Assembly (NCBI GenBank): GCA_963796275.1
Contig: CAWCKY010000004.1
Coordinates: 160,001-224,000, forward strand
Source: an uncultured Acidobacteriota bacterium
Lineage (GTDB): Bacteria > Acidobacteriota > Blastocatellia > RBC074
Direction: 5' to 3'
Length of the DNA: 64,000 bases
Numbering within the stretch: the stretch's first letter is position 1; every line of letters begins with the position of its first letter. Of the stretch, positions 36,984 to 55,704 are shown piece after piece. Under the pieces are notes generated by a model. It did no database searches. It saw only the letters and a list, made by a program, of their open reading frames with translations, and was not told where the DNA came from. Position numbers and translations under genes: made by a program.

Positions 36984-37544
36984 ATGCGATGTTTTATTGC
37001 TATCGAAGTTCCATCAGAGATCAAGGCAGCACTCATAGAGCTGCAGACTGATCTGAGTAGCGCCGGCGCTGATGTGGCCTGGACAAATCCGGACAATGTT
37101 CATCTCACCCTTAAATTTTTGGGTGAGATCAACAAGAAATTGATCAGCGAGGTCGAGAAGGTCTGTCACGATACAATAGCTGAAGTGCCGCCATTTGAGC
37201 TGAGCATCAATGGCATCGGCCTCTTCCCTAATGCACGACACCCGCGTGTCCTGTGGATCGGGCTCGGTGGTGAAATCGAAAAACTCGAGCGATTACAGGA
37301 GCGGCTCGACGAGCGACTGGCCGAAATCGGATTTGATAACGAGGAGAAAGATTTCCAAGCGCACCTGACTGTCGGCCGCATCAGATCGAATAAAAACCTG
37401 CGCGAGTTGCTCGCCAGATCGGTCGGCTACTCGCTGCCGGAGCTCTCATTCGTGGTGAAAGAGATCGTTCTTATGAAGAGCGATCTCCTGCCGACGGGAG
37501 CGTGCTACTCGGAATTGGCGAAAGCCCAATTCAGGGAAAAATAG
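36984..37544 (+). CDS. thpR: RNA 2',3'-cyclic phosphodiesterase (2H phosphoesterase)
   Basis: MRCFIAI start and two HxT motifs (HLTLKFLG, AHLTVGR), plus PRVLW. Confidence 0.9.
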   Translation: MRCFIAIEVPSEIKAALIELQTDLSSAGADVAWTNPDNVHLTLKFLGEINKKLISEVEKVCHDTIAEVPPFELSINGIGLFPNARHPRVLWIGLGGEIEKLERLQERLDERLAEIGFDNEEKDFQAHLTVGRIRSNKNLRELLARSVGYSLPELSFVVKEIVLMKSDLLPTGACYSELAKAQFREK

Positions 37545-37573
37545 TTGGAGCGAGATGGCTCCATCACAAGACG

Positions 37574-37640
37574 CGCAAAAGGGAACATAAAATCACAAAT
37601 TGTCATTGCTGTGATTTTTGTGTTCCCTTTTGTGTTTTCC
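37574..37640. terminator. Imperfect inverted repeat between convergent genes
   Basis: CAAAAGGGAACATAAAATCACA ... TGTGATTTTTGTGTTCCCTTTTG. Confidence 0.55.
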
Positions 37641-37664
37641 GGATGCCCTTGAATCCCTTCCGCC

Positions 37665-40488
37665 TCAGAGCGTGATCCCTTCATCGCTTCGGCCCAGGAT
37701 GCGCGCGACGACCTTGGCAAGCTGCACCGGTTCGACCGGTTTCGACAGGTGTTGCTGAAAGCCGGCTGAAAGGGCGCTTTCCTTGTCCGATACACCAGCG
37801 AATGCGGTCAATGCGATAGCCGGCACCTCACCTCCCTCTTCCTCCGGAAGCGCCCGGACCTTTTTGATCAGCGCATACCCATCCTCGACCGGCATCCCGA
37901 TATCGGAGACGAGTACGTCCGGCTTCCATTGGGAGAGGACATCCATCGCTTCGGCAGCGGAGGCGGCAGCGCGCACCTCGGTACCGTACCGAGAGAGCAT
38001 GACGCTGAGGATACTCGCGAGTGTCGTGATCATCATCGACAACCAGCACCTTGGCTCCTCGTAGAGATGAGGTCCGCGTATCTGGCTGTTTTTCCGGACG
38101 AATGGGCCATAAACCGCCGGCTTCCACATCGCCCTGCTGCGCCCCCAGCGGCAAGGTGATCATAAAGTCTGATCCCTGCCCGATCCCGCGGCTGTACGCG
38201 TATATTGCGCCACCGTGCAGCTCAACCAGATGCTTGATAATAGCCAGCCCGAGACCTAAGCCCCCCTGCTGGCGGCGCGACGAGCTATCGCCCTGACGGA
38301 ACCGATCGAATATGCGCGGGAGAAACTCGGGATCGATTCCCTGCCCCGTATCGCTGACAATAAGCAGGGCTTTGTTCTCCAACCGCTCGAGACGGACTTC
38401 GATCAATCCGCCAGGCGGCGTGAATTTGATCGCGTTAGAGAGCAGGTTCCAAACGATCTGTTTCAATCGTTCGACATCGCCATTGAAAGGACCGACCCAC
38501 GGCTCGAGAACGATCTGCATCCGCAATTCTTTGCCCTCGACCATGGGGCGCACCGCGTCGACGGCTGCTTCGACGATGGACATCAACTCGACCGGACGAA
38601 TCTCCAGGTTGAGTTTCCCCGTAGCAATGCGCGATGCGTCGAGCAGATCGCCGACCAGATGGGCCTGCGTCTTCGCGTTGCGCTCGATGGTCAACAACGC
38701 CCTATCGAACGAAGCGCGATCGAGCGTGCCGGATCGCAGCATCTGCGCCCAGCCCAGGATGGCGGTGAGCGGCGCCCTCAACTCGTGCGAGATCATCGCC
38801 AAAAAGTCATCCTTCAGGCGGTTCGCATCTTCCGCAACCTGCCGAGCCTCCTGCTCGCGGCTGAGCAGATCTGCGCGCTCCTCCTCGATGCGTACCCGCT
38901 CGACTTCCGACTTCTTGCGCTCCGTGATATCGCGCACGATGCCCGTAAAGGTTTGCCTGCCGTCTTTGACAAACTCGCTGAAACTGACTTCGACCGGGAC
39001 GTCCCGGCCATCCTTATGCCATCCCATCAATTCTATTCCCGCATATCCCCAGAAATTGCTCCGGTGTTGGCAGTGCATAAGCGTCGTCAATTTCTGTCCG
39101 ATGATCTCCGATGGTATATAGCCGAATATCTTCTCAACCGCCGAATTGACGTATTGGATCGTGATCTCTTCGTCCACCGTGAGGATGACATCAGATGCGG
39201 TCTCGGCCACGATGCGATAGCGCTCTTCGCTCTCGTGCAGGGCGGCGGCCATCCGTTCGCGTTCCGTGATGTCACGTATCTGGCTCATGACGATCGTCCC
39301 GTCCTCCGTAACAATCTGGCGCCGCGTGATCTCCGCCAGGAATTCGCGACCGTTACGGCGGATGACCGAGAATCCGACCTGATCGCTCACCCCCGCATCT
39401 CTTCCTATGGGAACCTCATCATCCAGCTCGAAATCATCCAGCTCGAGCAGCATATCCTCATCGGGGTCATCAGACTCTAGAGCCAGTCCAAGGCGACCCG
39501 ACTGTATTGTTTGTGCAGATTGGCCCGTTTGCCCATTCTGCCCCGTAGGTCCCGTTTGGCCCGTCTGCCCCGTCTGGCCGGTCTGCCCCGTCTGCCCCGT
39601 CTGCCCCGTCTGTCCTATTTGTCCAGATTGCCTCGTTTGCCCTGTTTGTCCGATTTGTCCAGATTGTCCCGTATGCCCCGTTTGGGCTATATTTCCAGAC
39701 TTTCCCAACTGTCCGGTTTTCCCCAGTTGACCCGTCTGCCCGATTTGCCCCGTATGCCCCGTTTGTGCATTTGAGGAATCGGGCAAAAGCATAGAGACTG
39801 GTTGGCCGAGCAGTTCCTGGCGATCCACTCCGAAGAGCTTCTCGGTTTGCGAATTGACGAGCACGATCTGACCGTCCTGATTCGCCAGCACAATTGCATC
39901 GGGAGCGAATTCGAGCAACTCCTGGAATCGCGTTCGCGCGGCAACCAGGCTATTGATGAGGCTGCGGTTCTCACGCATATCGCGCGCGACGGCGAGCACG
40001 CCCGTGATCTTGTTCTGTTTGTCCTGCATCAGACTCAGCGAAAAACTGACCGGGATCGTCAGGCCACTCATCGTTCGGATATCGACTTCGAGATTGGGCA
40101 ACCTTCCCGTGGGAGCCAACTCCATCAACTTCCACGGTGTGGCTGGAATTTTCTCGGTGCCACAAACCGCCCTCAACGGGCGTCCGATGATGGAGGACTC
40201 CGGATATTCGAGCAGGTTGGCCGCCGCGGGATTGACCCGGATGACGCGGCCCGACCGGTCCGTCAGAAAGAGCGCCTCCGACATAGACGAGACCACGTGT
40301 TGAAAGAGATCACGCGTTTCGGCGATCTCCGCAGTACGCCGCTCTAGCTCGAATTGCGCATTGGTCAGCTCGGTGTAAGCGCTCTGTAGATTTGCGAACA
40401 TATCAAGCCGGGCAGCCTCGTTCAATTTGCGCGTATTCTCCTGTCGATCGTCATCATCTTCTCTGAATTTCCAGCCCAGTAATTTCAT
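37665..40488 (-). CDS. Cytoplasmic hybrid sensor histidine kinase (coiled coil - 3 PAS - HisKA - HATPase - REC); frameshift near 38010
   Basis: H-box [10 protein letters not shown]-box [11 protein letters not shown]1 DTGQGI, G2 GLGLGL. REC domain VLVVDDD...VSDIGMP...KP is split over two frames. GGAGG RBS; no transmembrane segment seen. Confidence 0.9.
39497..39768 (-). repeat. Degenerate 9-bp tandem repeat encoding about 30 Gly-X-Y (mostly GQT) triplets
   Basis: GTCTGCCCC-type units on the + strand; protein [12 protein letters not shown]...[18 protein letters not shown]. Confidence 0.9.
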
Positions 40489-40849
40489 TATTCCTCCAGG
40501 TAGGTTCCTCTATCCGTTCGCGCGATTCTGAGTTTTGCTATATCAGTGAAGCACCTCAGCTCTATATTTGGTACTCCGGATCAGGTTGAATCATGTATAC
40601 CGGTTGGTTTCCAGCGGGGCGAATAATGCTCTATGATTCAAGTTTCAACAAGATTCCAGGGGGGCGAAACTAATGCATCGCTCTCGCTTCTAACGAATCT
40701 CAAAATAATTCTAAAATTAGTACTATAAATATTCCGCCTCGCCGAGGCTGTCAATGAAAATCAGGATGACCGGCATCCTCTCTCCATTTTTCCAGTGCCA
40801 AACCAGCGTCAAATTAGTTAGCGCCGGCTCTCAATGACAATTGGAACTG

Positions 40850-42682
40850 TTATGGATCAAAACTGCGAATTGTTCGCAATATATCGATCCCCGTAAAATC
40901 GTCGGGCTTACTGAACGCTTCGAGCAGCGGCGTATTGATGATCGCCTGTTCATATGGGCCCGGCTTGCCGAATGGGTCCTGCGGCGATCCCATCCACTCG
41001 GAAGGAGCGACGATCCGGTAATTTGCGATGCGGCCGCGTCCAATCACTACATGGTGAATCAAGGCGCCCTGCGCGTCTTCCCAAAAACCCACGCCGACAG
41101 CCTCCTCCCGCACTCTATAGGGTTTTGACATCGCCACGTCTCGGCGCTTAAGGCAATCGAAAGCCTTCAAGAGGTATGTCAACGCGATAATGCCGCAGTA
41201 GCCGATATGATAGGCGCGCGCGCGAATGCGATCGAGCGCGTTCGGTCTTTCCGGTATCTGCCAGCGCAACCTTCTGGCCGGTAGTTGAAAACGTGGGAGA
41301 TCGATCTCCAGTCCCATGCCAGCAGCACCGCCGCTGACCGCCTGGATAAACTCGCTCTTCAATTGACCGCCCGCCGCCGTGATCCACTGCCTCGCGAGCG
41401 GACCGGATTCAACCGCCTCACGATCCCAACGTGGCGCCATGTTCCAGCTATACCGGTCCATCCAGTGACTGCGCCCGGGCGCTGGAACCGTATGATTATT
41501 CCATGGATGCAGAGGCGAAAGCGGGATACCCAGCGGATCGACGATCACCGCACCATCATCCCCCTTTTGATAAAAAGAACGGTTGGTAAATTCTTCAATC
41601 CCCGCGTTTATCTCCGATAAACGAACGGTCCTTAATTTACCATTAATTATCACTCCTGGCGTCACAAGCCTACGCACACCCCAGTTATTGGAGTTTTCAA
41701 ACTTCGCATTGTAGCGGGAAGGATCATCCCACATACCCGCCGAGATCAGATTCGCGGGCAAGTAACCGGCGTGATGATAGCGCGCATCGATCTTATAGAA
41801 GAAATTGGCCAGGTCATCCCATATAGCCGCGGTCTTCTTGGCGTAGTCAATCAAGTGATTCAGGCGGCCCAGGACTTGATTGAATATTTCTTTGTCGGGA
41901 AGGATGCCGACTCCGCCGGGAAAGATCGCGGATGGGTGCGGATACTTACCGAAGACGAGCGTAGCGATCTCGCAAGCGATGCGAATCATACCCAATGCTT
42001 CGCGGTAAAGCGCGCCGCTCATCGGGTTCATCTCCCGCATAATGTCGGCGATCGTTTGGTAGCCGTGTAATGCGGAAAATTCGGCCTTCGACTCCTGAGC
42101 TTTAGCCCAGATCGTCATGCTCGTGCGGCTGATCGTCGCCTCCGAATAATCAGGTCCGGATTGCACAAAGAGATGGCGAGTGAGCGATGCCATCAACTCG
42201 GCCGCCGCTCCCAATCCGCGCGTGATAATCGCGAGAGGTGGCGGGGCAATATCCAGCGCCATCTCCAATGCCATGGCCGAGGCAATAGCGTTTGCCCCGG
42301 CGCCCCACCCGCAAATACGGCTGGCGATCGGCACGGCATCAGCCGGCAACCGGCCTTTGAGGATCTGCTCGAGATCCCAAAAATTGGTTTTCTCAACTCG
42401 CGCATCGAGTACCCGGCGGTTTTTGAAGTCTATGATGGCTCGTAGCGATAAGGGATTCTTCGCGCGCGCCAGCGGGTCGACTTCGAAATAACGAGCATCG
42501 GGATTGTTCGCCGCCTCCTCTAACCGCCGTTCGTGGTCCGAGTTCGCTTCAGTCTTAACCGTCCGACCAATTGCCTGCGGTCCGGCAGCCCCTGTCACCG
42601 CAAAGGGATCGGCGGGTCCTCGCAAACGCAACTTCCCCTGACCGCGGGAGTCGAGATCGATTGGCAGATTTTTGAAGACCAT
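40850..42682 (-). CDS. [NiFe]-hydrogenase large-subunit homolog B, metal-binding motifs degenerate
   Basis: Start MVFKNLPIDL matches the paralog. DPLAR, SRICGWG (second L1 Cys lost), GKYPHP, HPWN, R(I)RAR, PGPYE; ends [11 protein letters not shown] with no L2 CxxC. Confidence 0.88.
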   Translation of the reverse strand: MVFKNLPIDLDSRGQGKLRLRGPADPFAVTGAAGPQAIGRTVKTEANSDHERRLEEAANNPDARYFEVDPLARAKNPLSLRAIIDFKNRRVLDARVEKTNFWDLEQILKGRLPADAVPIASRICGWGAGANAIASAMALEMALDIAPPPLAIITRGLGAAAELMASLTRHLFVQSGPDYSEATISRTSMTIWAKAQESKAEFSALHGYQTIADIMREMNPMSGALYREALGMIRIACEIATLVFGKYPHPSAIFPGGVGILPDKEIFNQVLGRLNHLIDYAKKTAAIWDDLANFFYKIDARYHHAGYLPANLISAGMWDDPSRYNAKFENSNNWGVRRLVTPGVIINGKLRTVRLSEINAGIEEFTNRSFYQKGDDGAVIVDPLGIPLSPLHPWNNHTVPAPGRSHWMDRYSWNMAPRWDREAVESGPLARQWITAAGGQLKSEFIQAVSGGAAGMGLEIDLPRFQLPARRLRWQIPERPNALDRIRARAYHIGYCGIIALTYLLKAFDCLKRRDVAMSKPYRVREEAVGVGFWEDAQGALIHHVVIGRGRIANYRIVAPSEWMGSPQDPFGKPGPYEQAIINTPLLEAFSKPDDFTGIDILRTIRSFDP

Positions 42683-42834
42683 AGATTGGTGATTGCTGAT
42701 TATTGATTGCAGGGGGATTCTCCACAAAAACCGCATAAATACAAAAGACACAAAAGAGATCTTTTCTTTCTTGTGCCCTTTGTCTTTTCGTATTTTTTTG
42801 GGTGAATCTCTCTCCGCGATCCGCCATCAAGATG

Positions 42835-44625
42835 TTACGGATCGAAGCTGCGAATCGTTCGTAAAAGATCAATGCCTGTGAAATCTTCCGATCGCGTACA
42901 TTCTTCGAAGAGTGGCGTGTTGATCACCGCCGCCTCGTAGATGCCGGGCAATCCCGATGAATCGCGTGGTGATCCCATCCACCCGGTTGGAGTGGTGATC
43001 TGGTAGTTTGAAATGCAAAGATTCCGGTTGACGATGTGATGGGTGATGGCGCCGCTGCTGCTCTCCCAAAATCCGGCGCCGATCGTTTTTTGCGGGATGA
43101 ACTGACCGGCCGACATCCCGGTCTGTCCAGTCCGCACCAGATCGAAGGCTTTGAGCAGGCTGGCATATGCGGTCAGGCCGGCATATGCCATTTGATATGC
43201 GCGGGCGCGGTTGCGCTCGAGTGTGTTCGGCTTTGCCGGTATCTGCCAGCGTAATGTGATGGCCGGCCGCGTGCCCATCGGCATATCAAACTCCAAACCA
43301 TAGCGGTCCTGCCTGATAAATTCACAATCAAGACTTCTGCTCAATGCGTTTACCCAAAGAAGCGCGATCGGCCCCGTCTCCATCGACTGGCGATCCCACC
43401 TCGTCGAGGTGCTCCAGCTGTAGCGATTCTTCAATTGACGTTCAGCCGGATCGGGAATCGTCTCCTTGTTCCACGGATGCAGGTGAGACAGCGGCATGCT
43501 CAAGGGATCAGTCGGAAACGAACAATGATTCCATTGCCGATAGAATGAGTGATCGATAAATTCTTCGATCCCTATGTTGATATCGCTCAGCCTCGCCGTG
43601 CGCCATTCCCGGTTAGTGATGATACCCGGGCTCGCCATTCGGCGCCTCGCCCATTCATTACAGTTCGCGTAACTCGCGTCGTAACTTGCGGGATCGTCCC
43701 AACACCCCACGCTCAGAAAATTTCCCGGCAATTCGCCGGCGAGGCGATAGAGCGGGTCTGCTTCATAAAAGAACTCTACCAGGTCGTCCCAGATCGCCGT
43801 AACTTTCTTCGAGTAATCGAGCAGCGTGCTGACGCGACCGAGAATCTGATTAAAAAGATCCTTGTCCGCTTCGATCCCCAATCCGCCAGGATAAATCGTG
43901 GTCGGATGCGGATACTTGCCGAAAATCATGGTGGCGATTTCGCATCCCAACCTCGACATCTGGAGAGCCTCGAGATAAAGCGGGCCGTACATCGTGTTCA
44001 TCTCGCGCATGATATCGGCGATGGACATCAGACCGTGAATCTCGACGCCAGGAGCCCTCGTCACTTGCGCTTTGGCCCATATCGAGAGGCTGGTGCGACT
44101 GACTGCGGCCTCGGAATAGTCCGGCCCGGTGAGCAGGAATAGATGGCGGGCGCATTCGCTCAGCATCTCGCCACACGATCCCAGATTCCGCGCGATGATC
44201 GCCAGCGGGGGCGGCGTGAGATTCCCGGTCATCTCCAATGCCATCGTTGCGGCGATCGCGTGGGCGCCGCTCGCTCGCCCACTGGTGCGGCAGGCGATCT
44301 GAGTTGCATCGAAAGGATTCCTCTCCTTCAACATCAGTTCAAAGCCGCAGAATTGCGTGTTTTCGACGTAGGCATCGAGCACTCGCCGTTGCTCGAAATC
44401 GATTATAGAATTCAAGACCAACCCGCCCGATGCGCGCGTCAACGGATCGATCGTGAAATTCCATACGTCCGGACTTTCGGCACCGCTTTCCATCGTTTGC
44501 TCTATCCCCGGCGCGCGATCCACACGGGGTTCTTCAACGATGTCGAAAGACGCTACCGGTCTATTGTCGTTCAAACGCGCTCGCCCGTAGGCATCATATT
44601 TGATTGGCAAACTCTTGAATACCAC
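42835..44625 (-). CDS. [NiFe]-hydrogenase large-subunit homolog A, metal-binding motifs absent
   Basis: GTG start. DPLTR, L1 region reads CRTSGRA instead of SRxCGxC, GKYPHP, HPWN, ERNRAR; ends [11 protein letters not shown]. Confidence 0.88.
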
Positions 44626-44716
44626 TGATTCCAGTTTCCAGTGTTCTGTTTTCAGTTATCAGTTTTCAGACAATCAAGATCGGCAACCACTAAAAACTGA
44701 ATTGAAAACTATTTTT

Positions 44717-45562
44717 TCAACCCGGGTCCGGACGGGCGAGATGAAGGAGGCGATCGGCGAAACCACGCTCGGTACAACCGATGCAACTCCCACCCACGCG
44801 GACACAACCGCCGAAATTCCTCAACCACCCATTGACCGGCACCGAGCAATTGACCGTCGGGCGGTTCGTCAGATCAATTCCGCCAGCCGGAGAATATTCG
44901 ACACGCGGTGGCAATGGATGTGTTTGGTGACTGAAAAGCCAGCGAGGACGGCGTTCCTCATCCAAATCGATGGGTACCAGTTGAGCTAAATGCAGAAAAA
45001 CGTAAATCAAGGTCTCAATAAAACCTTCACCTGTCGGAGCACAACCTGGAAGATTGATGACGGGCAATTTGGCCTGGCTTCTGAAATCCTGGCCTAGATA
45101 TTCATCGAGGCCGTTGGCAGCGATCGGGCTGCCGGCCGAAGCCGGAATACCTCCCCAGGTCGCACAGCTACCAATCGCTATAACCGCCTCGGCCCTGCGC
45201 GCCAGCCGGTCAACCCACGCGGCGGTCGTGATCGGCTTGCCATTCTGTGTCATTCCCAAACGTGAAAAGCTTCCATCTCCGGCGCGCGACTCGTCCGGGA
45301 TTGCACCTTCAAGCACCAGAACAAAGGGAGAGTAGGCGCCCTCGGCAGCGCGTTCGAGATGGGCGCGATACGAATCGCCGCTCTCCAGTGAAAATTCGGG
45401 GTGAATCATTACTACGCGAGGCACGTCGGGCACATTGCCCATAATTAAATCTTCTATCCCGGGTTCAGAGGCGCAGAGCATCGCCATCGTGCATCCGTTG
45501 CAACCAGCCCCGGTTAACCAGATCAGATGTACAGCCTCGAGCGATGTCCCTTCGCTCTGCAT
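44717..45562 (-). CDS. [NiFe]-hydrogenase small-subunit homolog (proximal and medial cluster cysteines present, distal ligands absent, no Tat peptide)
   Basis: [28 protein letters not shown], then NC...GGC...GGSCIGC. GAGGAG RBS. Confidence 0.88.
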
Positions 45563-45726
45563 GGATAACTCCTCAAAAGATTATTTCATCAGCTCTCTAA
45601 ATGGGGGGGATGTGAGCTGAAACTACAGAAACGATCCACTCATACGACCAGTGACAATGATCAACCTAAGTTTAATATGATCAAATGATTTCCGCTACTG
45701 GCTGTCGCTCAGTCATGAGTGAGCGG

Positions 45727-45756
45727 ATTATAAACATACTAATCAGGTTGCGCAAC
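45727..45756 (-). promoter_or_regulatory. Sigma70-type promoter for the hydrogenase-like operon, with a palindrome over the -35
   Basis: Minus strand TTGCGC (45755-45750), 17 nt spacer, TATAAT (45732-45727). GTTGCGCAAC palindrome at 45747-45756. Confidence 0.55.
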
Positions 45757-45971
45757 TGGTCTGACGCTACCCGTGAATTTGCGTGTAATCGCGGTAGAGA
45801 ATAGAATCACCGTTCTTCATTCGTCTCGTATCTTCGTGTTCTATTTTCAGACCACCCGTTCAACGAACGTTGCGCGAAAACCACTGAAAATAGACAGGAT
45901 TTATCGGATTTTCAGGATTTACCGGGTCGCAGCGATTCTTGAAAATACCGTCTATTGCCAGAGGAGTTTTT

Positions 45972-46718
45972 ATGAACCCTGAGCAACTTCAGAAGTTGCA
46001 TTACGACCGTATCGCTCAAGAATATGAGGCCCATTATGACGATTCAAACAGCCAGCGATACCGCGACAAATTCTATCATCGGACGATGTTCGAGGGGATG
46101 AATCTGACCGGCATGAATGTGCTCGAGGCGATGTGCGGGAGCGGGCAAACGACCCAATTCCTGCTCTCCGAGGGCGCGCAGGTCACCGGTTTGGATATCT
46201 CGAATGAGACCATATCTTCCTTCAGCAGACGCTGGCCAAATTGCAATGCGATCTGCGCTTCGCTGCTCGATTCAGGGTTGGAGAGCGACTCATTCGATGC
46301 CGTCTCGATAGTGGGCGGGCTGCATCATCTGCCTCCCTATGTCGAGAACGCGATCAGCGAAATTCATCGTATTCTCAAGCCGGGCGGATATCTGTGTTTC
46401 GCCGAACCTCATAAAGGATCACTCCCCGACCTGATTCGGCAACTGTGGTACAAACACGATTCGCTCTTCGCCAGCAATGAAGAGGCTATCGATATGACCG
46501 AGCTAAAACGGGCGTTCGCATCGCAGTTCAGCTTCAGAAGAGAGCGATACCTAGGCAACGTCGCGTACCTGCTCGTGCTGAATTCGATGGTCTTCCGTAT
46601 TCCGCTGAGATTGAAACCCGTCTACTCCCCCGCTCTTATACATCTGGAATCTGTGCTCAACCTACTTCAAAGCAAAATGACGGCGTGTCTTGTCGTCTGC
46701 CAATGGCAAAAAAGATGA
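45972..46718 (+). CDS. Class I SAM-dependent methyltransferase
   Basis: VLEAMCGSG motif I, GLDIS, LHHL, RILKPGG. GAGGAG RBS precedes the ATG at 45972. Confidence 0.85.
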
Positions 46719-47441
46719 ATAGTGCTCATCCACCGGACTCGATACCTTTGCGTGGACGCGTTTCATCAGCTCATCGACATCTTCTTTTTTCAGCCCTTTC
46801 GTCTCGATCGTGTCGTGCAAGTGCACCGTGATCTTCGAAGGATAGAGCATCCAATCGCCCTTCCGGCTGAATTCATATGCACCGACGATGCTCATCGGAA
46901 CGATGGGATAACCGAACTGAATCGCCATGCGAAATACGCCCGGGTTGAATGGGCCGACCCGGCCATCGGTAGTGCGGGTCCCTTCGGCGAAGACAATCAG
47001 GCTGATTCCTCGATCGAGCGCTCCCCGCGCCATCTTCAACATCTTTTTATAGGCGGATAAATTCCCTTCCGGAGGCACCGGTATATTCCCGAATTGCTTC
47101 ATCATCCAGCCATAGGCCGGAACGCTGAAATGAGATTCATTCTCCAGCCCGCGGACGAACTGAGGGATGGCGGAATAGATGATAAATGCATCCCAGATGT
47201 CGATGTGGTTGCAGACGAAGAAACTCGTGCGCCGCCGGTCCAATCCCGGAGAATACTTGACTGCCAAATCAACGCCGGCGACCCGCAGGATGTTGCGGAA
47301 AAGCCACCGCTGCGGCCGGTCGTTTTTACGCGGATCGATGAAAATCCCGAGCAGGACTAATACAGTGCAGATCGGAAAGAAGTGGATGATGCTGACGGTC
47401 CATATAAAAATGCTGCGAGCAATGTAGTAGAGTTTCTTCAT
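46662..47441 (-). CDS. Lysophospholipid/1-acylglycerol-3-phosphate acyltransferase (PlsC family)
   Basis: NHIDIWD (HX4D) and FAEGTR motifs; N-terminal hydrophobic segment. Confidence 0.88.
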
Positions 47442-47443
47442 GA

Positions 47444-47610
47444 TCGGTTGTCGGTTTTCGGTTGCTGGTTGCCGGTTGTTGGTTGTTGGTTGGTTGTTGG
47501 TTGTTGGTTCGCAATTGTTTCGAGGGAAATAAAATCGATGTAAACCGGCTACCGACTACCGATAAAATGTCGCTTGTTGATGTAAACCGACAACCGACAA
47601 CCGATTACCG
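47444..47610. repeat. Heptamer tandem repeats arranged as an inverted pair
   Basis: TCGGTTG/CTGGTTG/TTGGTTG units at 47444-47510 and complementary CAACCGA/CTACCGA units at 47543-47610. Confidence 0.75.
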
Positions 47611-48507
47611 TCACACCATTACATTTAATGCGGAGGGAAGCACTTCCAAACTTTCGCACTGGACCTTCATCACTTCGCCATCAATCATAATATCGACCGG
47701 TTCCTGAAAATCCAGATCGATGCGCTGAGCCCTTCCCACCCAAACGAGCGGATGTGAAATGTGGGTACCGTCGTAGCATTTCGGAAAATTCCGGATGAAA
47801 TCGAATCGATCGGCCGACCAGCGAACGATATCGATCAACCCATCGCGCGTATCGGCATTCGGCGCGAGCATCATTCGACCTCCGGTATACTTGCTGTTAT
47901 TGAATATCAGAAGCGCGGACAGCGGTGGATCGGCTTCAGCCACTCCATCGATTTTCATTCTGAAGATGCGCTTCTTGAAGTTCGCTAAGCAGAGGAGTAC
48001 CGACAACGGGTAACTGGCCGCGCCCAGCGATTTAAACCGATCATTGGCGAGTGTGCAAACATCGGCTACGAAACCGAGGCTCAAGATGTTGATATAAAAA
48101 ATCTCACCATCTTTATGTTTCAGGCGGACCACATCGCAACCGCGCCAGCGCTTTTCCATGATAGCCCGAAACGCATATTCGACTCCTTTATCAGTGAAGT
48201 CGCGCAGGAATGAGTTGCCCGTGCCGAGCGGCAAGAATCCCAGCCACGGTTTAACGCCATCGTTCGCGGCTTCGGGAAACAGGCCGTTGACGATTTCAAA
48301 TGAAGTGCCATCCCCGCCGACTGCGATGAATTTAAGATATCCGTCGCGGTAGGCCGCGCGCGCTATCAGGGTCGCATGCCCCGCGCGCTCGGTTTCAACA
48401 ACGTCAAACTGCAGCCCTGCTGCGCGCAGGCGATCGAGTGAGGGACCGAGAAGCTTGGCGCATTTTCCGAAACCCGCCGCCGGATTGACGATGGCAAGAG
48501 TCTTCAT
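47611..48507 (-). CDS. Diacylglycerol/lipid kinase family protein (YegS/DAGK-like)
   Basis: [28 protein letters not shown] motifs. Confidence 0.9.
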
Positions 48508-50228
48508 AGCTCTATGACCGCCGTGTGGCGCTCATATCTGTTTCGTAATTCCTCGGCCAGTACAAATCGTTTGATCTTCATCGAAGCGGTGCGCGGGAAA
48601 TCGGTATCACACAGGATGTAGCCGCTTATACGTTTGAAGTTGAGCAGCGTGTTATTACACCTGGAGATTTCCTGGATGACATCATCCGTCAATGCCTGCC
48701 CTTCATTGAGCCTCAGAGCGATCACCAGTTTTTCTCCGAGCATCGTGCGTTCAGGCCACACGTAGTTGGCCGCGAAGATGCAGAACTCCTTGACCGGCAG
48801 CCCATCAAAAGCCTTTTCGATGTCTTCCGGGTAAACGTTCTTCCCTTCTTCGGTGACGATCATATTCTTGACCCGCCCGAAGAGCTGAAGATGCCCCTCC
48901 TCGTCAAATCGTCCGAGGTCCCCGGTCAATAGCCAGCCATCGACGATTGTCTCAGCTGTCAGCTCCGGTTCATCCAGATAATGCGACATCACGGTATCGC
49001 TCCGGACGATGACCTGACCGATCCCGTCATCGTCCGGGTTGACCACCCGGACATCCATCCCGGGAAGCGGTTTGCCGACGGTATCGGCGCGGAACGGTCT
49101 GAAGTCATTGAGGGTGATGGCCGTCCCCGCTTCAGTCAAGCCGTAGCCATTTCCCACCGGAATCCCTACATCATAGAAGAACTGAAGCATCGAAGGATCG
49201 CTGAATGCCCCGCCCGTGAAGACGGCGCGCAGCTTCCCGCCGAACGCCTGGTGTATCTGTCTGAACATACCACGGCTCAGCCTGGGACGCGGCTGATTCT
49301 TCGTCAGAGCGCGATTGATCCTGACCAGTCGATTGAAGAAAAAACGGTTGAAAGGCGACAATTCATCGAGGCGTTTCATCAATGCGATCTGCAGGTTCTT
49401 CAAAATCAGCGGCACCAGGGCGACATACGTGATCTTGTACCGCACAAAGGCCTCGCGCACGAATTCCGGTCGCAATGTGCGCAGATGAATGACAGTCGCG
49501 CCGCAAACGAACGGCCCGATGAATCCAACCATAAAATCTATCGCGTGGTTCGTCGGCAAAATGCTGAGGTATCTCACGCCCGGCCAGAAAGGGAAAAGCG
49601 ATGTAAGCGAGGCGCACTGCTCGAGATAGTTATGGTGCGTCAACACGCACCCTTTTGGAGTTCCGCCGGTGCCCGAAGAGTAAACTATGCACGCCCAATC
49701 TTCACGCTTGCGCTTTACGAATAAAGGCTTCCCCTCGACATCGGGGTCTTCCCAGCGGATCGCGCCATATAGATCCGCATTATCCGGTGCATCGGTCACG
49801 ATCACTGTGCCGACGCTGAATTCCGAAAATCCCTCGCAGCGAGCCATCGCGCGCCACAGGTGATATTCGGTGATCAGCACTTCAGCCTTGGAGTGAGTGA
49901 GCAGAGCCAGATGTTCGGGAGCCGAAAGCTTATAATCGAGTGGGACAACCACGCCTCCTGAGTAAAAGATGGCGTATGCCGAAATCGGCCAGCGCGACTG
50001 GTTGGACAGAATGATCGCCGCACGCGAATCGGCCTCGAACCCGCGGTCCTGGAGAAACCTCGCCAGTGGCATAGCGGCTTCTTTGAATGTACGGTAGGTC
50101 AACCGGTGATTTTCCTTATCGCGATCGGCTTCGATAAGGCAGACTTCTTTGGAGAATCGGTCGATTGCTTCGCGCAGAGCGGATCCTATCGATTGGTGCT
50201 GGCTCAGATTGATCATCCCATTTTTCAT
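48504..50228 (-). CDS. Long-chain acyl-CoA/acyl-ACP synthetase (AMP-binding)
   Basis: [38 protein letters not shown]. Confidence 0.9.
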
Positions 50229-50277
50229 GTGTTCGCTGTAGCACGCCTTTTTTCGATTTATCCATCCGCAAGCAGCA

Positions 50278-50520
50278 TCACAGTCGCGCTTGAATTCGTT
50301 CAGCCAGTGTGCGGAAATCGCTTACACCCTGCACTTCGTAATCAGGCAATTCGACATTGAAATGGTTCTCCAGACGAGTCAGCAGTTCGAGCGCCTGCAA
50401 ACTGTCAATACCCAGTTTTTTGAAATAGTCGTCGTCCGGTGAAAGCTCTTCGCGCGATGCCTTAAAATGCGTCGCGGCAAGCGTGAGTATTTCGTCAACG
50501 ATGTTTTCTGTAGTTTTCAT
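50278..50520 (-). CDS. Acyl carrier protein
   Basis: 80 aa from MKTTEN; LGIDSL phosphopantetheine site; LENHFNVEL. Confidence 0.88.
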
Positions 50521-50531
50521 AAACCCAAGAA

Positions 50532-50604
50532 TAGTTGATAGTTCGTAAACATTGTGGCAACAATCTATACGAACTATCAACTATCAACTGTCAACTATCA
50601 ACTA
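50532..50604. repeat. Heptamer tandem/inverted repeat
   Basis: TAGTTGATAGTTCGTA ... TACGAACTATCAACTATCAACTGTCAACTATCAACTA. Confidence 0.75.
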
Positions 50605-50606
50605 AT

Positions 50607-51602
50607 TTAGTATGCCCACCGCACCAGTACCGTTCCGGCCGTGAATCCAGCTCCGACAGCGGCGAACAAGACCAGGTCCCCTCTCTTCAATTTACCATCG
50701 TCGATCGCGTCGCCTATGGCCAGCGGAATCGTCCCGGCCGTCGTATTTCCGTACTTGTGAATATTCCGGATAACCTTCTCCTGGGCCAATCCGAGTTTTT
50801 CGGCAGTAGCATCGATGATTCGGATATTCGCCTGGTGTGCGATGAAGGCTCCCAAATCATCGCCGGTCAGGTGATGTTTTTCGAGCATTCTATGACTTAA
50901 CTCTTCCATCTTCCGCACCGCGAATTTGAAGACCGAAGAGCCGTTCTGGTGAACGAAGTGCATATTCTTTTCGACGGTCTCCCGGGTGGACGGATGCAGA
51001 CTTCCGCCGGCGGGCATGCAGAGATTGTCGCCGCCGGAACCATCGATTTCGTGATAATAATCGAGTATCCCAAATTCTTCGTTTTCAGCCGGCTCGAGCA
51101 ACACGGCGCCGGCGCCATCGCCGAAGAGGATGATGGTTGATCGGTCACTCGGATTGACGATGCTCGTCATGACGTCGGTGCCGACGACAAGAACATTTTT
51201 GTGTTGCCCGCTCTCAATGAATTGCGCTCCGGTGGTCAGGGCGTAGAGGAAGGACGAGCAGGCGGCGGAGATGTCAAAACCCCACGCGCGCGTTGCGCGG
51301 ATTTTGTTCTGGATTACGCAGGCCGTCGAGGGGAAGAACATGTCGGGAGTGACCGTCGCAACGATAATCAACTCGATCTCTCCGGCCTCGATGCCGCGAC
51401 GCTTTAGGAGATCGTCGATGGCTTTGACGGCGAGTTCGGAGGCAGGCGTCCCTTTTTCGACCCATCGCCGTTCGTGGATACCGGTACGTTCAACAATCCA
51501 TTCGTGACTGGTCTCAACCAACTTTGCCAGATCGTGATTGGTTACGACGCGCGGCGGCACGTAACGCCCCAACGCTGTGATCTTGGCTCTTCGTTTAGTC
51601 AT
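50607..51602 (-). CDS. fabH: 3-oxoacyl-ACP synthase III
   Basis: RTGIHERR, catalytic [16 protein letters not shown] and YGNT motifs. Confidence 0.92.
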
Positions 51603-51690
51603 TCGTTATTCTCCGGAGATACGGGAAAATGCAAAAATGCTAATAGCTGAATATTCCTGGCATTACCTGCTTTTCAATTCCCGCTACATT

Positions 51691-52494
51691 TCAGGGCAAA
51701 TAAGGAAATGGATCGCTGCTCTCCACAAATCTACGCAAGCCGGCTTCGACCGCTGGTCGAGTAAATAGCTCGCAGAAAATTTCGATCTCTTGTCGAAGTT
51801 CGGCGGAGGGGACCGGCTTGATGAACCCTTTCGCTCTGATACTCGTCGCTCGATCAAACTTCCTTACCTGTGCGGCCGCCGCGCGCGCTACTTTGAGCGC
51901 ATCGCCTTCAGCAACCAGCTGGCTGACCAGCCCGATAGTTTGCGCCTTATTAGCATTTATACTCCTACCGGTCAGCAACAAGTCACGAACAATAGCATTA
52001 CCCAGATCACGCTTCAAACGCGGAATGCCGCCGAATCCAGGGATCAGACCCAACCGAAGTTCGGGAAAACAGAACCGGGCCATCTTGTCCGCAATGATCA
52101 GGTCGCAAACGAGCGCGAGTTCGAATCCGCCTCCGAATGCCATGCCGTGGACAGCTGCGATCGTCACGAGCGGCGAAGCGTCGAGCGTGTTCATCACGCC
52201 ATGAATACGGTTGAGAAACTCGCGAACGCGCGGCGCGGCGTTTTCAAATCCCAATTCTTTGGCGCGGAGATAGAGTTCGCGCAGATCGGCCCCGGCGCAG
52301 AAACCCGATTTCATGCGGCTGTAAATGATGAGCGCGTGTGCTTCATCCTTTAATATTTCGTGCGCCTCAACGAATCGTTCGAGCTCTTCGAGGGTCTTCG
52401 AGCCGATTTCATTGCAGGGCTCACGATGCAGGGCCAGTTCGATACAACCATCGCGCATTTCCCACGAAATCGTCTCACCGGTGAAGCTTTTCAT
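51691..52494 (-). CDS. Enoyl-CoA hydratase/isomerase family protein
   Basis: [29 protein letters not shown]; both catalytic glutamates present. Confidence 0.9.
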
Positions 52495-54149
52495 ACTTTT
52501 TTGGAATGATACAGATCCTCGATCTGAGACTGAAATTGTGCGGCAATGGCATCGCGCCGCAGCTTGCCATTCGCCGTCAGCAATCCGCTCTCGATCGTCA
52601 AAGGCTCTTTGTTGAGATGAAATGCGTGTATACGCTTGTAATGCGGCAACTGCAGATTGACCGTCTCCAGAGCCTGTTCAACCTGCTCGTGCGACACCTC
52701 CCCAGTGATCAATGCAGTCAGGAAACCGCGGCCATTACCCATTACCACGCATTGCTGCGCGTCCGGCAGTTTAAAAAGAACCTTCTCCTCGATAGGCTCG
52801 GGCGCAATGTTATGGCCGGAATTCAGGATGATCAGGTTCTTGATTCTACCGACGATCGCCCATTTGCCTTGCTCATCGACTTCGCCTTGATCTCCGGTGC
52901 GCAGCCAACCGTCGTTCATCGTTTTCGCCGTAGCCTCAGGCTTCCCCCAGTAACCGGCGAAGATATTAGGCCCTCGTACCAGTATCTCATCGCCTTCGCC
53001 GAGTTCCATCTCTACCCCGGGAACCGCCGGTCCCACACGACCGGGTACGAAATCGCGCGGGTCATCCAACGTGCAGATAGCCGTGGTTTCGGTCAAGCCA
53101 TAAACCTGTAAGACGCGAATCCCGAGCATGAGGAAGAAAAGTTGCGTATCTTTCGCCAGAGGCGCAGAGCCGCAGATCAGCGCCCGCAGGCTCGACCCGA
53201 TCTTTTTTTTGATGGAAGAAAAGATCAGCGAATTTGCCAATGAGAACCAAAACCCGTCAAAACCCGACGCTTTTCCCTCGTACTTTCGCAGCCAGGCCGC
53301 TTTGCCATTGTGATAAACCTTGCGGATGATACCCGGCTTCCGCGCTATCTGGCTCTCAACACCCGTGCGAATACGCTCGAGCAATACCGGGACGTTGAGG
53401 AAATATTGCGGTTGGGCTAGTGTCAGCTCCTCTCCGAGTTTATTGAGATCGGTCGATAGAGTCAGCAGACTGTGGCGCGACAAACACCCAAGAAGCAGGA
53501 TCCACGAGCCGGCGAAGCAGAAGGGCAGATAATGAAAAACGTGATCCGGATAACTCTCGCTTTCGCCTTCCATCAACTGATCGAGCCGCATCCCCACACA
53601 GCTCAGCATAAATGTGACGTTGCCGGCATTTAGCATAACTCCCTTCGGCTCGCCCGAAGTACCGGATGTATAGATGAGAGTGACGACTTCCCCATCATCG
53701 AGCGTCAGCGGTCCATCAGCCAGCTCATCTGCCGGCTTGGCCGAAAAGATTTCCTCGAAGAGCTTCAACCTCAGCGTTCCAGCATGTTGGTTCTTCGCTA
53801 TCCCATCGAGGAGCTCTTCACTGCTGCAGCAAACCATCGCCGCGCCGCAATCTTTGAGCATACGGGCGAGCTCATCCGGCGCCTGTCTCGGATAGAGGGG
53901 GACCACGATGATGCCTTCGGCGATGAGCGCCAGATCCAGCGCCGCCCATCGAATACTGTTAGGCGCGAGCAATCCGCAGCGGTCGCCTTTCTGTAAGCCC
54001 GATTGGCGAATGAAGCTGCGCGCCGTCCGGATCGATGTAAGCAGTTCGCCCGCAGTCGCGCCAACGAACTGGCCGTCACGAACCTCACGCAAGATAGGAA
54101 GGTCGGGTCTTTGTTTCAGTCGATGAAAGATGTTTTCGATAAAGTTCAT
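52491..54149 (-). CDS. Long-chain fatty acid-CoA ligase (FadD-like)
   Basis: [42 protein letters not shown]. Confidence 0.9.
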
Positions 54150-54162
54150 TCGGTGAAGCCCC

Positions 54163-54280
54163 TTGTCATTGTTAATTGTTCATTGTTGATTTTCATTTGT
54201 CATTTGTCATTTAAGAATTAAGCTACCGTTTTTTTCTTCAATGACAAATGTCAAATCAACAATGAGCAATGAAAAATGAC
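54163..54280. repeat. Heptamer tandem/inverted repeat
   Basis: TTGTCAT/TGTTAAT/TGTTCAT units followed by complementary AATGACA/AATGTCA/AATGAGC units. Confidence 0.75.
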
Positions 54281-54291
54281 GGGTGGGCCAG

Positions 54292-55704
54292 CTAGCTATA
54301 TGTTTCAAGCAATTTATGCAAATTCCCGCTCAGCGGCGGCAAATAATCCTCCCAATTCTGCAATCCCTTGCGGATCGGGAAATCGGGATATCGCCGCTGC
54401 AGGTGCTCTTCGAAATAGATGCCCATCCGCGCCATCACTTTCAAATTTCTGGCTACTGTAGCACCGATACCGTCGCGAACCGATTCTTGTTCTTTGAGCA
54501 ATCTTCCCATGACTTCGAACAACCTTTCCTCCAGGTCCGGATCGTCAACGGTCAGGAGCAGATCCTGGTGGCCGCGTTCGTGCATCAGGTTTCTGATTCG
54601 TTCATCCATTGTCAGTCCGGCCGAAGCGACGAGCGACGGCATCGTAGTCACAATTCCGTGGTATCGTGAAGAGACCATCAGATTGCAGTGTCGCAGAATG
54701 CTGACGAGTTGATACATATCGTAATCCGCGGATGAAAATACCGGCAACCCGCCCAGCTTCTCCGCTATCTTTTCGCAGGCCTCCGTATCGAGCATCTCCG
54801 TAGCCGCCAGTACGACGAAAACGCGGTGTTGCTTGCGGAAGCGGTCGACCGCATTTGCTATAGCCCTCAGATAACGCGCGAATGCCTCGTCCACCTCCGG
54901 CCCAGCTCTGTGGAAGTAGACTGTACGATACTGGCTATCTCGATAGGCACCGGTCAATGTCAAAGCGATGAACTTCGATACCGAAGCATTGACCGGCCAC
55001 CAGTAAGGATTGACGGGACAGACGACGAGCACCGGCGTTCGCTCATCCCAGCCCGATTTGCGTAAAGCATCCCGCCCAAAATCGGGGCGGGGCGGTTCGA
55101 ATGTCCAGGCGGTGTCCGTTCCGAGCGCGGTCGATACGCCGAGTTTGCCCAGCACGGTTTGCGATTCCGGATTACGAGTGATGACGAATGAATCCTTGCA
55201 ATAACGCCCGACCATCCGCGCCAGTACCGGCTCCATATATCCCGCTTCCGCTCCATAACCCAGGCTCAGTTTGTTCTGCGCCGCTGCGATGCCGAGCGAA
55301 CCGACCATCATTGCAGTCACCGCATTGGTGAATTTGCTCTTGAACATTGAGCCCTCGCACGCAACGACGCCGTCGAATTTTGGTACTTCGCGCGCCAGCA
55401 TCGGCGGGAAGATGTCGGGAAGTTTTACCTGCTTGACGCTTTTGAAATAGCCTTCTGTGAACCCGAAATTCTGACTCAGGACGCTCAACTCGCACCTGTC
55501 TTCACCAAGAATATGCCTGACCTGGCGCAACATCTCCTCGACGCGCACATCGGAGCCCGTATTGCGGGTTCCGTTATAACCGGTGAAGAGCAATTTCAGT
55601 TTTTCGCCCGGTTGCCAGCGGCGTCCCGCGCCCAGCATCCATTTGAGCTTTGAAATTTCGATCAAACCCCCGACCCAGGCTTCGAGCGCCAGATCCATAC
55701 TCAT
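54292..55704 (-). CDS. Polysaccharide pyruvyl transferase-like protein
   Basis: GYNGTRNTGSD (cf. GYYG..N.GD), ITRNPES, GTDTAW, VSSRYHG. Confidence 0.7.
   Translation of the reverse strand: MSMDLALEAWVGGLIEISKLKWMLGAGRRWQPGEKLKLLFTGYNGTRNTGSDVRVEEMLRQVRHILGEDRCELSVLSQNFGFTEGYFKSVKQVKLPDIFPPMLAREVPKFDGVVACEGSMFKSKFTNAVTAMMVGSLGIAAAQNKLSLGYGAEAGYMEPVLARMVGRYCKDSFVITRNPESQTVLGKLGVSTALGTDTAWTFEPPRPDFGRDALRKSGWDERTPVLVVCPVNPYWWPVNASVSKFIALTLTGAYRDSQYRTVYFHRAGPEVDEAFARYLRAIANAVDRFRKQHRVFVVLAATEMLDTEACEKIAEKLGGLPVFSSADYDMYQLVSILRHCNLMVSSRYHGIVTTMPSLVASAGLTMDERIRNLMHERGHQDLLLTVDDPDLEERLFEVMGRLLKEQESVRDGIGATVARNLKVMARMGIYFEEHLQRRYPDFPIRKGLQNWEDYLPPLSGNLHKLLETYS

Follow-up and report, generated by a model that had tools for sequence, protein, structure and literature searches.

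To our knowledge, only one type of nickel-iron ([NiFe]) H2 sensor has been studied: HoxBC/HupUV of group 2b, in which all three iron-sulphur (FeS) clusters are kept. Here we describe S, a hydrogenase small-subunit homologue of an uncultured Acidobacteriota bacterium, which has the ligands for two clusters and none for a third. Its gene lies in a window of 64,000 nt, the whole stretch of DNA analysed (contig CAWCKY010000004.1, 160,001-224,000, forward strand); coordinates are positions in this window unless another contig or a locus is named. On the minus strand the gene order is S, two large-subunit paralogues, La and Lb, a gap of 360 bp, and a PAS hybrid histidine kinase (Table 1). S is probably the FeS subunit of a hydrogenase-derived, histidine-kinase-coupled sensor complex of S, La and Lb, which the PAS kinase would read out.

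The group 2b sensor of Cupriavidus necator is likewise a hydrogenase-type heterodimer encoded beside a PAS histidine kinase, HoxJ (pHG1 gene order), and it also has a four-Cys medial site. The two systems presumably follow a common logic, in which a kinase reads the state of a hydrogenase module. According to the available text of PMC5665086, HoxB has three [4Fe-4S] clusters, including a distal one whose ligands are one His plus three Cys, and H2 reduces the medial and distal clusters. S has two cluster sites to the three of HoxB; furthermore, HoxC has an active NiFe site whereas La and Lb have none. In the HydDB scheme, as set out in the accessible part of PMC5037454, only group 2b and the putative group 2c are listed as sensory [NiFe] groups.

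The closest reference is found in group 1h, in the small subunit HofK (5AA5) of C. necator. Like S, HofK is cytosolic, has no twin-arginine translocation (Tat) leader, has a four-Cys medial site and shows the same domain order. The proximal cluster of 1h enzymes is held by three Cys and one Asp, and the Asp is needed for the O2 insensitivity of the C. necator enzyme (PMC11023054, available part). S has neither this proximal site nor the His/3Cys distal site of 1h. Compared with HofK, it has four Cys at the proximal position and lacks the distal [4Fe-4S] ligands, 12 residues and the C-terminal tail. Its partners have no NiFe site, and its gene is kinase-linked rather than tied to hyp or maturation genes.

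Hydrogenase pairs without the NiFe Cys can nevertheless be functional. For example, NuoB/NuoD of complex I and the Ehr-type complexes have a shortened FeS relay; they are descended from membrane-bound enzymes of group 4, have kept a single cluster, and serve in quinone reduction or ion pumping. The S family, in contrast, appears to come from the 1h side, has two predicted clusters, is soluble by sequence and is kinase-linked; the NuoB model scores only 16 bits against S. The putative sensory [FeFe]-hydrogenases of the group C HydS type also tie hydrogenase modules to signalling domains (PMC5037454 and PMC11023054, available parts). However, they belong to an unrelated protein superfamily and retain the catalytic cluster. 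In the full-text literature that could be searched, which excludes subscription-only papers and HydDB itself, nothing was found on small subunits with two clusters, on 1h-like subunits that lack the NiFe ligands, or on a link of such subunits to kinases. S shows all the features of this unnamed two-cluster clade: eight Cys, no distal ligands, a Cys at the Asp position, its placement in the tree, and an adjoining kinase.

By its ligand pattern S is a two-cluster FeS protein, in which both the proximal and the medial Cys sites are intact and a third site is missing. Two [4Fe-4S] clusters are most likely bound, a proximal one through C21, C24, C133 and C174 and a medial one through C239, C253, C260 and C263. 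These residues lie in the motifs GCNGC (C21, C24), GSC (C133), PGC (C174), NC (C239), GGC (C253) and CIGC (C260, C263), which an earlier note, made from the letters of the DNA, had rightly described as intact. The genome has two 1h small subunits of its own (HhyS; C6:2200837-2201892 and C6:2229346-2230341). When S is aligned with both, seven of its eight Cys fall on columns of Cys ligands and the remaining one, C24, occupies the column of the 1h Asp ligand. The distal ligands of 1h, the His of VHEGC followed by three Cys, correspond to H215, P218 and a gap of 12 residues in S. The same note had called the distal segment shortened and Cys-free, which agrees with this alignment: T214-V237 is 12 residues shorter than its 1h counterpart. 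A PPR motif within the remnant is conserved. The C-terminal tail of the 1h subunits (45-65 aa) is absent from S.

Two further points in the earlier note are accurate but describe inherited traits. There is indeed no Tat leader; the 1h subunits of the same genome lack one too, and the point is therefore uninformative, the absence having come down from the cytosolic 1h lineage. The four Cys of the medial site, present as described, are likewise inherited, as HhyS of this genome has them too.

Profile and structure comparisons give a similar picture. PF01058 matches S at 75.9 bits (cut-off 27), and the flavodoxin-like N-terminal domain with the four proximal ligands is present. PF14720 reaches 26.5 bits (cut-off 27), and its match is limited to profile positions 39-75 of 80, corresponding to the medial part; S does not have a complete C-terminal small-subunit domain comprising both medial and distal parts. 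TIGR00391 scores 94.3 bits, below its cut-off of 179.5, and none of the NCBIfam hydrogenase models passes its cut-off for S, La or Lb. An AlphaFold2 (AF2) model of S, built from 55 sequences, has a predicted local distance difference test score (pLDDT) of 86.6 and a predicted template modelling score (pTM) of 0.88. It is weak at residues 221-230 (pLDDT 56) and 241-260. The best structural match found by Foldseek with this model is 5aa5_A (E 1.6e-27, TMq 0.84).

The two-cluster pattern is conserved. Among the closest 120 of 905 database matches (61-87% identity), C21 and C24 are each present in 118 sequences, and C133, C174, C239, C253, C260 and C263 in all 120. Because it is conserved in 118-120 of these homologues, the eight-Cys pattern can be regarded as a real trait of the family. 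The column of the 1h Asp ligand holds Cys in 118 sequences and a gap in the other two. The distal ligands are missing from all 120, P218 is kept in all 120, and position 215 is His in 37 and Tyr in 71. The ninth Cys of S, C30, is found in only 4 of the 120. The earlier note had named alternative ligands for a third cluster as something that would speak against its view; no substitute ligand set is conserved in the alignment of these homologues.

The coding sequences point to purifying selection on all three genes. For S against four orthologues (Nei-Gojobori), the nonsynonymous rate (dN) is 0.18-0.22 and the synonymous rate (dS) 1.9-2.5, which is saturated; dN/dS is about 0.1. La and Lb give dN of 0.32-0.37 and dS of 1.5-2.5. 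Within residues 205-238 of S, the distal remnant, the ratio of nonsynonymous to synonymous proportions (pN/pS) is 0.25-0.40. The argument that retention of eight Cys speaks against neutral decay is borne out, as the Cys are invariant and dN/dS is low. It should be noted that S has been considered as a functionless, decaying remnant of a duplicated 1h operon. In favour of this, the NiFe ligands are gone, as are the distal cluster and the C-terminal tails, and the kinase receiver in the window is frameshifted. However, S, La and Lb are full-length open frames, the best 120 homologues keep the Cys and 61-87% identity, dN/dS is well below 1 (dS saturated), and the same ...FDP truncation point is kept across the clade of large subunits without a NiFe site. 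The chance of decay is negligible, and we reject a decaying pseudogene because of the conservation data.

S appears to belong to a lineage that branches beside group 1h and is separate in origin from the known sensor group 2b. A sequence search of the PDB returns 5aa5_A, a 1h small subunit, at E 5.6e-67, followed by Huc at 1.6e-25. The reference proteins HofK/HofG, HoxB/HoxC and HoxK come from the annotated record of pHG1. Against S, identity is 41.7% for HofK of 1h (E 9e-76), 34% for HoxB of 2b (E 2e-30) and 24% for HoxK of 1d; against La and Lb, it is 36-38% for HofG and 24-25% for HoxC. Because S, La and Lb are all nearer to HofK/HofG than to HoxB/HoxC, the S family is not group 2b, and S is not a member of that group by sequence. 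The comparison with HhyS and HoxB that had been proposed as a check leaves the two-cluster pattern standing, with S nearer to 1h than to HoxB.

In a tree of small subunits, a single clade of 43 terminals (support 0.928) brings together all sequences that lack the distal ligands and have Cys in the Asp column. This clade excludes all 1h, 2b and 1d references, including HofK and both HhyS copies of this genome; S does not lie inside the 1h clade, though 1h is the closest reference. The tree points to loss of the distal cluster as a single event in the ancestor of the kinase-linked clade. P0246 (328 aa) has also lost the distal Cys, yet it groups with three-cluster subunits of another clade; this looks like a second, independent loss. 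As the 1h Asp is replaced by Cys in S, nothing suggests a protected proximal cluster, and an oxidant- or redox-responsive centre is plausible.

Of 401 sampled genomes of the phylum, 40 have a small-subunit match at E <= 1e-20, a count which includes G024, whose match is of the 1h type. Only this genome and two other sampled members of its family (71-73% identity) have the two-cluster type; the remaining matches have 44% identity or less. Judging by their names, database members come from Blastocatellia, other Acidobacteriota, one Dehalococcoidia metagenome-assembled genome (MAG) and one KSB1 MAG. No RNA sequencing run is listed as containing this DNA; five DNA runs are, with shares of at most 0.20. 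Many members are named 'hydrogenase expression protein HypE' at NCBI, and HofK carries the same label in the RefSeq pHG1 record (L144:2963-4018). The HypE label is a propagated misannotation in both cases.

The large subunits encoded next to S have lost most or all of the NiFe ligands. Four Cys were scored, in the motifs RxCGxCxxxH (L1) and DPCxxCxxH (L2). La has none of the four: neither Cys is present in the ten-residue L1 motif, and the protein ends ...RSFDP followed by TAA, with the L2 Cys pair absent. In Lb, L1 reads RICGWGAGAN, with one of the two Cys, and the protein again ends ...RSFDP followed by TAA; one of the four Cys is left. Selenocysteine read-through was considered for both and rejected: the stops after FDP are TAA, not TGA, and nothing hydrogenase-like lies beyond. 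Partners with all four NiFe Cys do occur in relatives. In loci L053, L058 and L061, S-clade genes lie directly upstream of large subunits with RACGVCGGVH; that of L058 also carries DPCLPCAVH and is closest to 5aa5_C (E 1.7e-150).

Among 120 homologues of La, 36 keep both L1 Cys, mostly as RACGVCGGVH. The C-termini of 12 of these were inspected; they keep the L2 pair and have a tail ending in a CxCG motif. The other 84, including La itself, mostly have an L1 rich in Ser, Gly and Ala and end ...RSFDP. These dead large subunits nest within the intact forms, and two intermediate sequences keep the Cys but end at the mature His. The second large-subunit copy retains both L1 Cys in L009 and is absent from L012 and L060. 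A search of the dead forms for new conserved metal ligands gave 8 clean class switches only, none of which is an evident metal site. A La-specific Cys, C434, is present in 72 of 80 La-clade sequences, in place of the Asn of intact forms.

Since the two-cluster clade includes members beside intact large subunits, the distal cluster looks to have been lost before the NiFe site, in a lineage still seemingly able to activate H2. The missing distal cluster would be a trait of the sensor lineage, and not a consequence or partner of the dead catalytic site. This bears on the suggestion in the earlier note that S is sensory rather than enzymatic. The suggestion itself agrees with the kinase synteny, with fusions of S to kinase and helix-turn-helix (HTH) domains, and with the lack of NiFe ligands in La and Lb; the pairing of distal loss with lost catalysis, on which it partly drew, does not hold.

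The large subunits of the clade (La, Lb and those of L053, L058 and L061) have an N-terminal extension, M-x-F-x-x-L-P-I..., which is not found in 1h. The mechanical open reading frame (ORF) of Lb reaches to a GTG at 42751; the ATG at 42682 was chosen by the N-terminus MVFKNLPI, which La and its orthologues share. At residue 2, 33 of the 37 forms without a D/A/G-P end have Cys, and 48 of the 83 with such an end have Val. The forms with inspected tails also finish in CxCG, a tail that is missing from the dead ones. These extra Cys, at residue 2 and in the tail, appear to go together with the NiFe site.

A histidine kinase gene directly follows the last large-subunit gene in all eight loci with a visible flank (the window, L010, L011, L012, L133, L134, L060 and L058); in nine others the sequence is too short for a judgement. 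Directly upstream of S there is a kinase in L009 and L063; that of L057 is divergently upstream. The kinase adjacency that marks group 2b is also present here, along with fusions, and S may act through the kinase. The N-terminal 185 or so residues of the kinase, a coiled coil with a PAS domain, share 75% identity with L010 and 36% (E 2e-26) with the kinase beside an intact large subunit in L058; the best other match in this genome is 27%. This module appears to travel with the operon and to be unique in the genome.

S has also been joined to signalling domains directly. P0242 and P0390 (1171 aa, two diverged copies) have the order REC-PAS-REC-HisKA-HATPase-linker-S, P0391 (852 aa) is PAS-HisKA-HATPase-linker-S, and the singleton P0244 (350 aa) is HTH_17-S. 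All three kinds of fusion carry the eight Cys and no distal ligands. An apparent fusion of S to La in L011 (926-aa ORF) was rejected; it is a frameshift artefact near the 3' end of S (L011:9780-9960), and the usual ...RPDPAY stop is found in another frame.

In L057, a receiver and a LuxR-type HTH form part of the kinase protein, whose gene lies directly upstream of a true 1h hhySL pair. This is the clearest hint that the parent lineage regulates an atmospheric-H2 enzyme. On this metagenome contig (L057:559-8919), the S-clade gene is divergent from the gene for this PAS-GAF-HisKA_3-HATPase-REC-LuxR protein.

In group 1 enzymes, electrons leave through the distal-cluster lobe. We propose that this lobe was deleted once, in the ancestor of a clade beside the 1h atmospheric-H2 enzymes. 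In members with NiFe-intact partners, the truncated relay would hold electrons from H2 rather than pass them on, and the kinase would read this state. In the lineage of S, the large subunit would have been duplicated, and both copies would then have lost their NiFe ligands. As neither large subunit has these ligands, H2 would no longer be the direct input here. The two clusters being strictly conserved even so, S would most likely inform the kinase of a redox state (cellular reductant, O2 or another oxidant), La and Lb serving as scaffold. A wider proposal is tentative, and we would not yet bet on it: the S clade may be a group of unclassified kinase-coupled gas or redox sensors descended from the ancestors of atmospheric-H2 scavengers. 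Removal of the exit cluster would have made a wire into a two-cluster charge store read by a kinase. Stepwise takeover, from one intact large subunit through an intact and a dead one to two dead ones, the end state seen in the window, would have converted a hydrogen sensor into one with FeS but no nickel, which in aerobic soil Acidobacteria would respond to O2 or cellular redox state.

Several observations weigh against a kinase-coupled sensor. Cluster binding is predicted from the ligand pattern, and contact between S and the kinase from gene arrangement and fusions. The kinase gene begins 360 bp past Lb, behind a weak terminator-like hairpin; when 37400-46100 was scanned for promoters and terminators, there was no excess of sites over shuffled sequence, and co-transcription is putative. 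The three PAS domains within the kinase could take a signal without S. The kinase ORF spans 37828-40488; near 38013 a +1 shift splits off the receiver, which is read to 37665 in a different frame. Orthologues such as that of L010 are single ORFs, and the shift could reflect either an error of sequencing or true damage. The loci with kinase synteny are for the most part from related Blastocatellia and not independent of one another; about four independent lineages can be counted (the dead clade, L058, L057 and the fusions). Several further pairings of S-type proteins with intact large subunits are judged only from equal contig sizes and from names. Finally, genomes G251 and G016 carry the S-La-Lb-kinase operon but no 1h hydrogenase; therefore control of Hhy is not a general role of the dead-clade operon. 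A complex prediction of S with two 4Fe-4S clusters against kinase residues 1-185 scored 0.00 and 0.00 (mark 0.32), and weighs neither way.

Other roles for S can be considered. FeS ligands are often needed simply for folding, and the clusters could be purely structural; S, La and Lb would then be an inert scaffold or pseudoenzyme that tunes the kinase, with the signal entering through the kinase PAS domains. The presence of three such domains fits this, as does the large-subunit fold, which has been kept after catalysis was lost with only the 8 clean switches between dead and intact forms. We consider such a role unlikely, since it leaves unexplained why the S domain alone has been fused to kinases and an HTH, and why the distal lobe alone was removed at the base of the sensor clade. 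S might instead still take part in H2 sensing, either by pairing in trans with an intact large subunit or by taking electrons from the true Hhy and so reporting the flux of H2 oxidation. This genome has a complete 1h hydrogenase with hyp genes, as well as a second copy; in L057 an S-clade gene and kinase-regulator flank true hhySL; and the second large subunit of L009 keeps both L1 Cys. However, G251 and G016 have the operon without a 1h large subunit, their other PF00374 matches being of different kinds, and S is encoded with, and co-evolves with, La and Lb. Continued H2 sensing by S in this genome is quite unlikely.

It is also conceivable, though very unlikely, that the complex is still an enzyme, with a new non-NiFe site in La or Lb from which S would pass electrons through its two clusters to a partner docked at the medial cluster. 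Purifying selection on all three genes, a large-subunit scaffold highly conserved across 80 La-clade sequences, and the La-specific C434 would all fit such an enzyme. On the other hand, the old site has gained no conserved set of metal ligands, L1 being variable and rich in Ser, Gly and Ala; the second large-subunit copy has been lost entirely from L012 and L060; and the kinase link and fusions point to signalling.

If S does belong to such a complex, it would represent a second sensor lineage of independent origin, which would show what signalling requires of a hydrogenase. The exit cluster would have been dispensable from the start and the NiFe site later, but the proximal and medial clusters never. 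The clade offers a natural series (intact, half-dead, fully dead, kinase-fused and HTH-fused) in which communication between a hydrogenase module and a kinase could be studied, and its FeS-only descendant lets one ask what such a module senses. There is also a practical consequence: under their present names, 'hydrogenase small/large subunit' or 'HypE', these genes would lead to H2 oxidisers being overcounted in soil metagenomes.

Table 1. Positions of S, its predicted cluster sites and the adjoining genes in the 64,000-nt window
Feature	Position	Strand	Basis and details
S, small-subunit homologue, 281 aa	44717..45562	-	ORF; PF01058; 5aa5_A match; AF2/Foldseek
Proximal-cluster Cys codons (predicted site), span	45041..45502	-	C21 45500-45502, C24 45491-45493, C133 45164-45166, C174 45041-45043
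Medial-cluster Cys codons (predicted site), span	44774..44848	-	C239 44846-44848, C253 44804-44806, C260 44783-44785, C263 44774-44776
Remnant of distal-cluster segment, T214-V237	44852..44923	-	24 residues, Cys-free, 12 residues shorter than 1h
La, large-subunit paralogue, 596 aa	42835..44625	-	PF00374 169 bits; 5aa5_C E 2.1e-109
Lb, large-subunit paralogue, 610 aa from ATG 42682	40850..42682	-	PF00374 match
Hybrid histidine kinase	37665..40488	-	Coiled coil + PAS (aa ~25-185), two more PAS, HisKA, HATPase_c, receiver (Pfam)

In the kinase of the window, G-Q-T/S triplets are repeated in a row (TGQ repeats; Pfam Collagen E 1.6e-10) at about 39470-39760, corresponding to residues ~243-340. This insert sits between the second PAS domain and the rest of the kinase, and it is absent from nine of nine aligned orthologues.

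The second 1h copy of this genome (G000:C6:2229346-2232258) has a large subunit split over two frames, with ORFs of 274 and 362 aa, and is flanked by three hybrid kinases. In the window itself, genes of lipid type are found at 46662-55704: an acyltransferase, a diacylglycerol (DAG)-kinase-like gene, two AMP-ligases, an acyl carrier protein (ACP), FabH and an enoyl-CoA hydratase. Parts of this set recur near the operon in L009-L012, in the other orientation.
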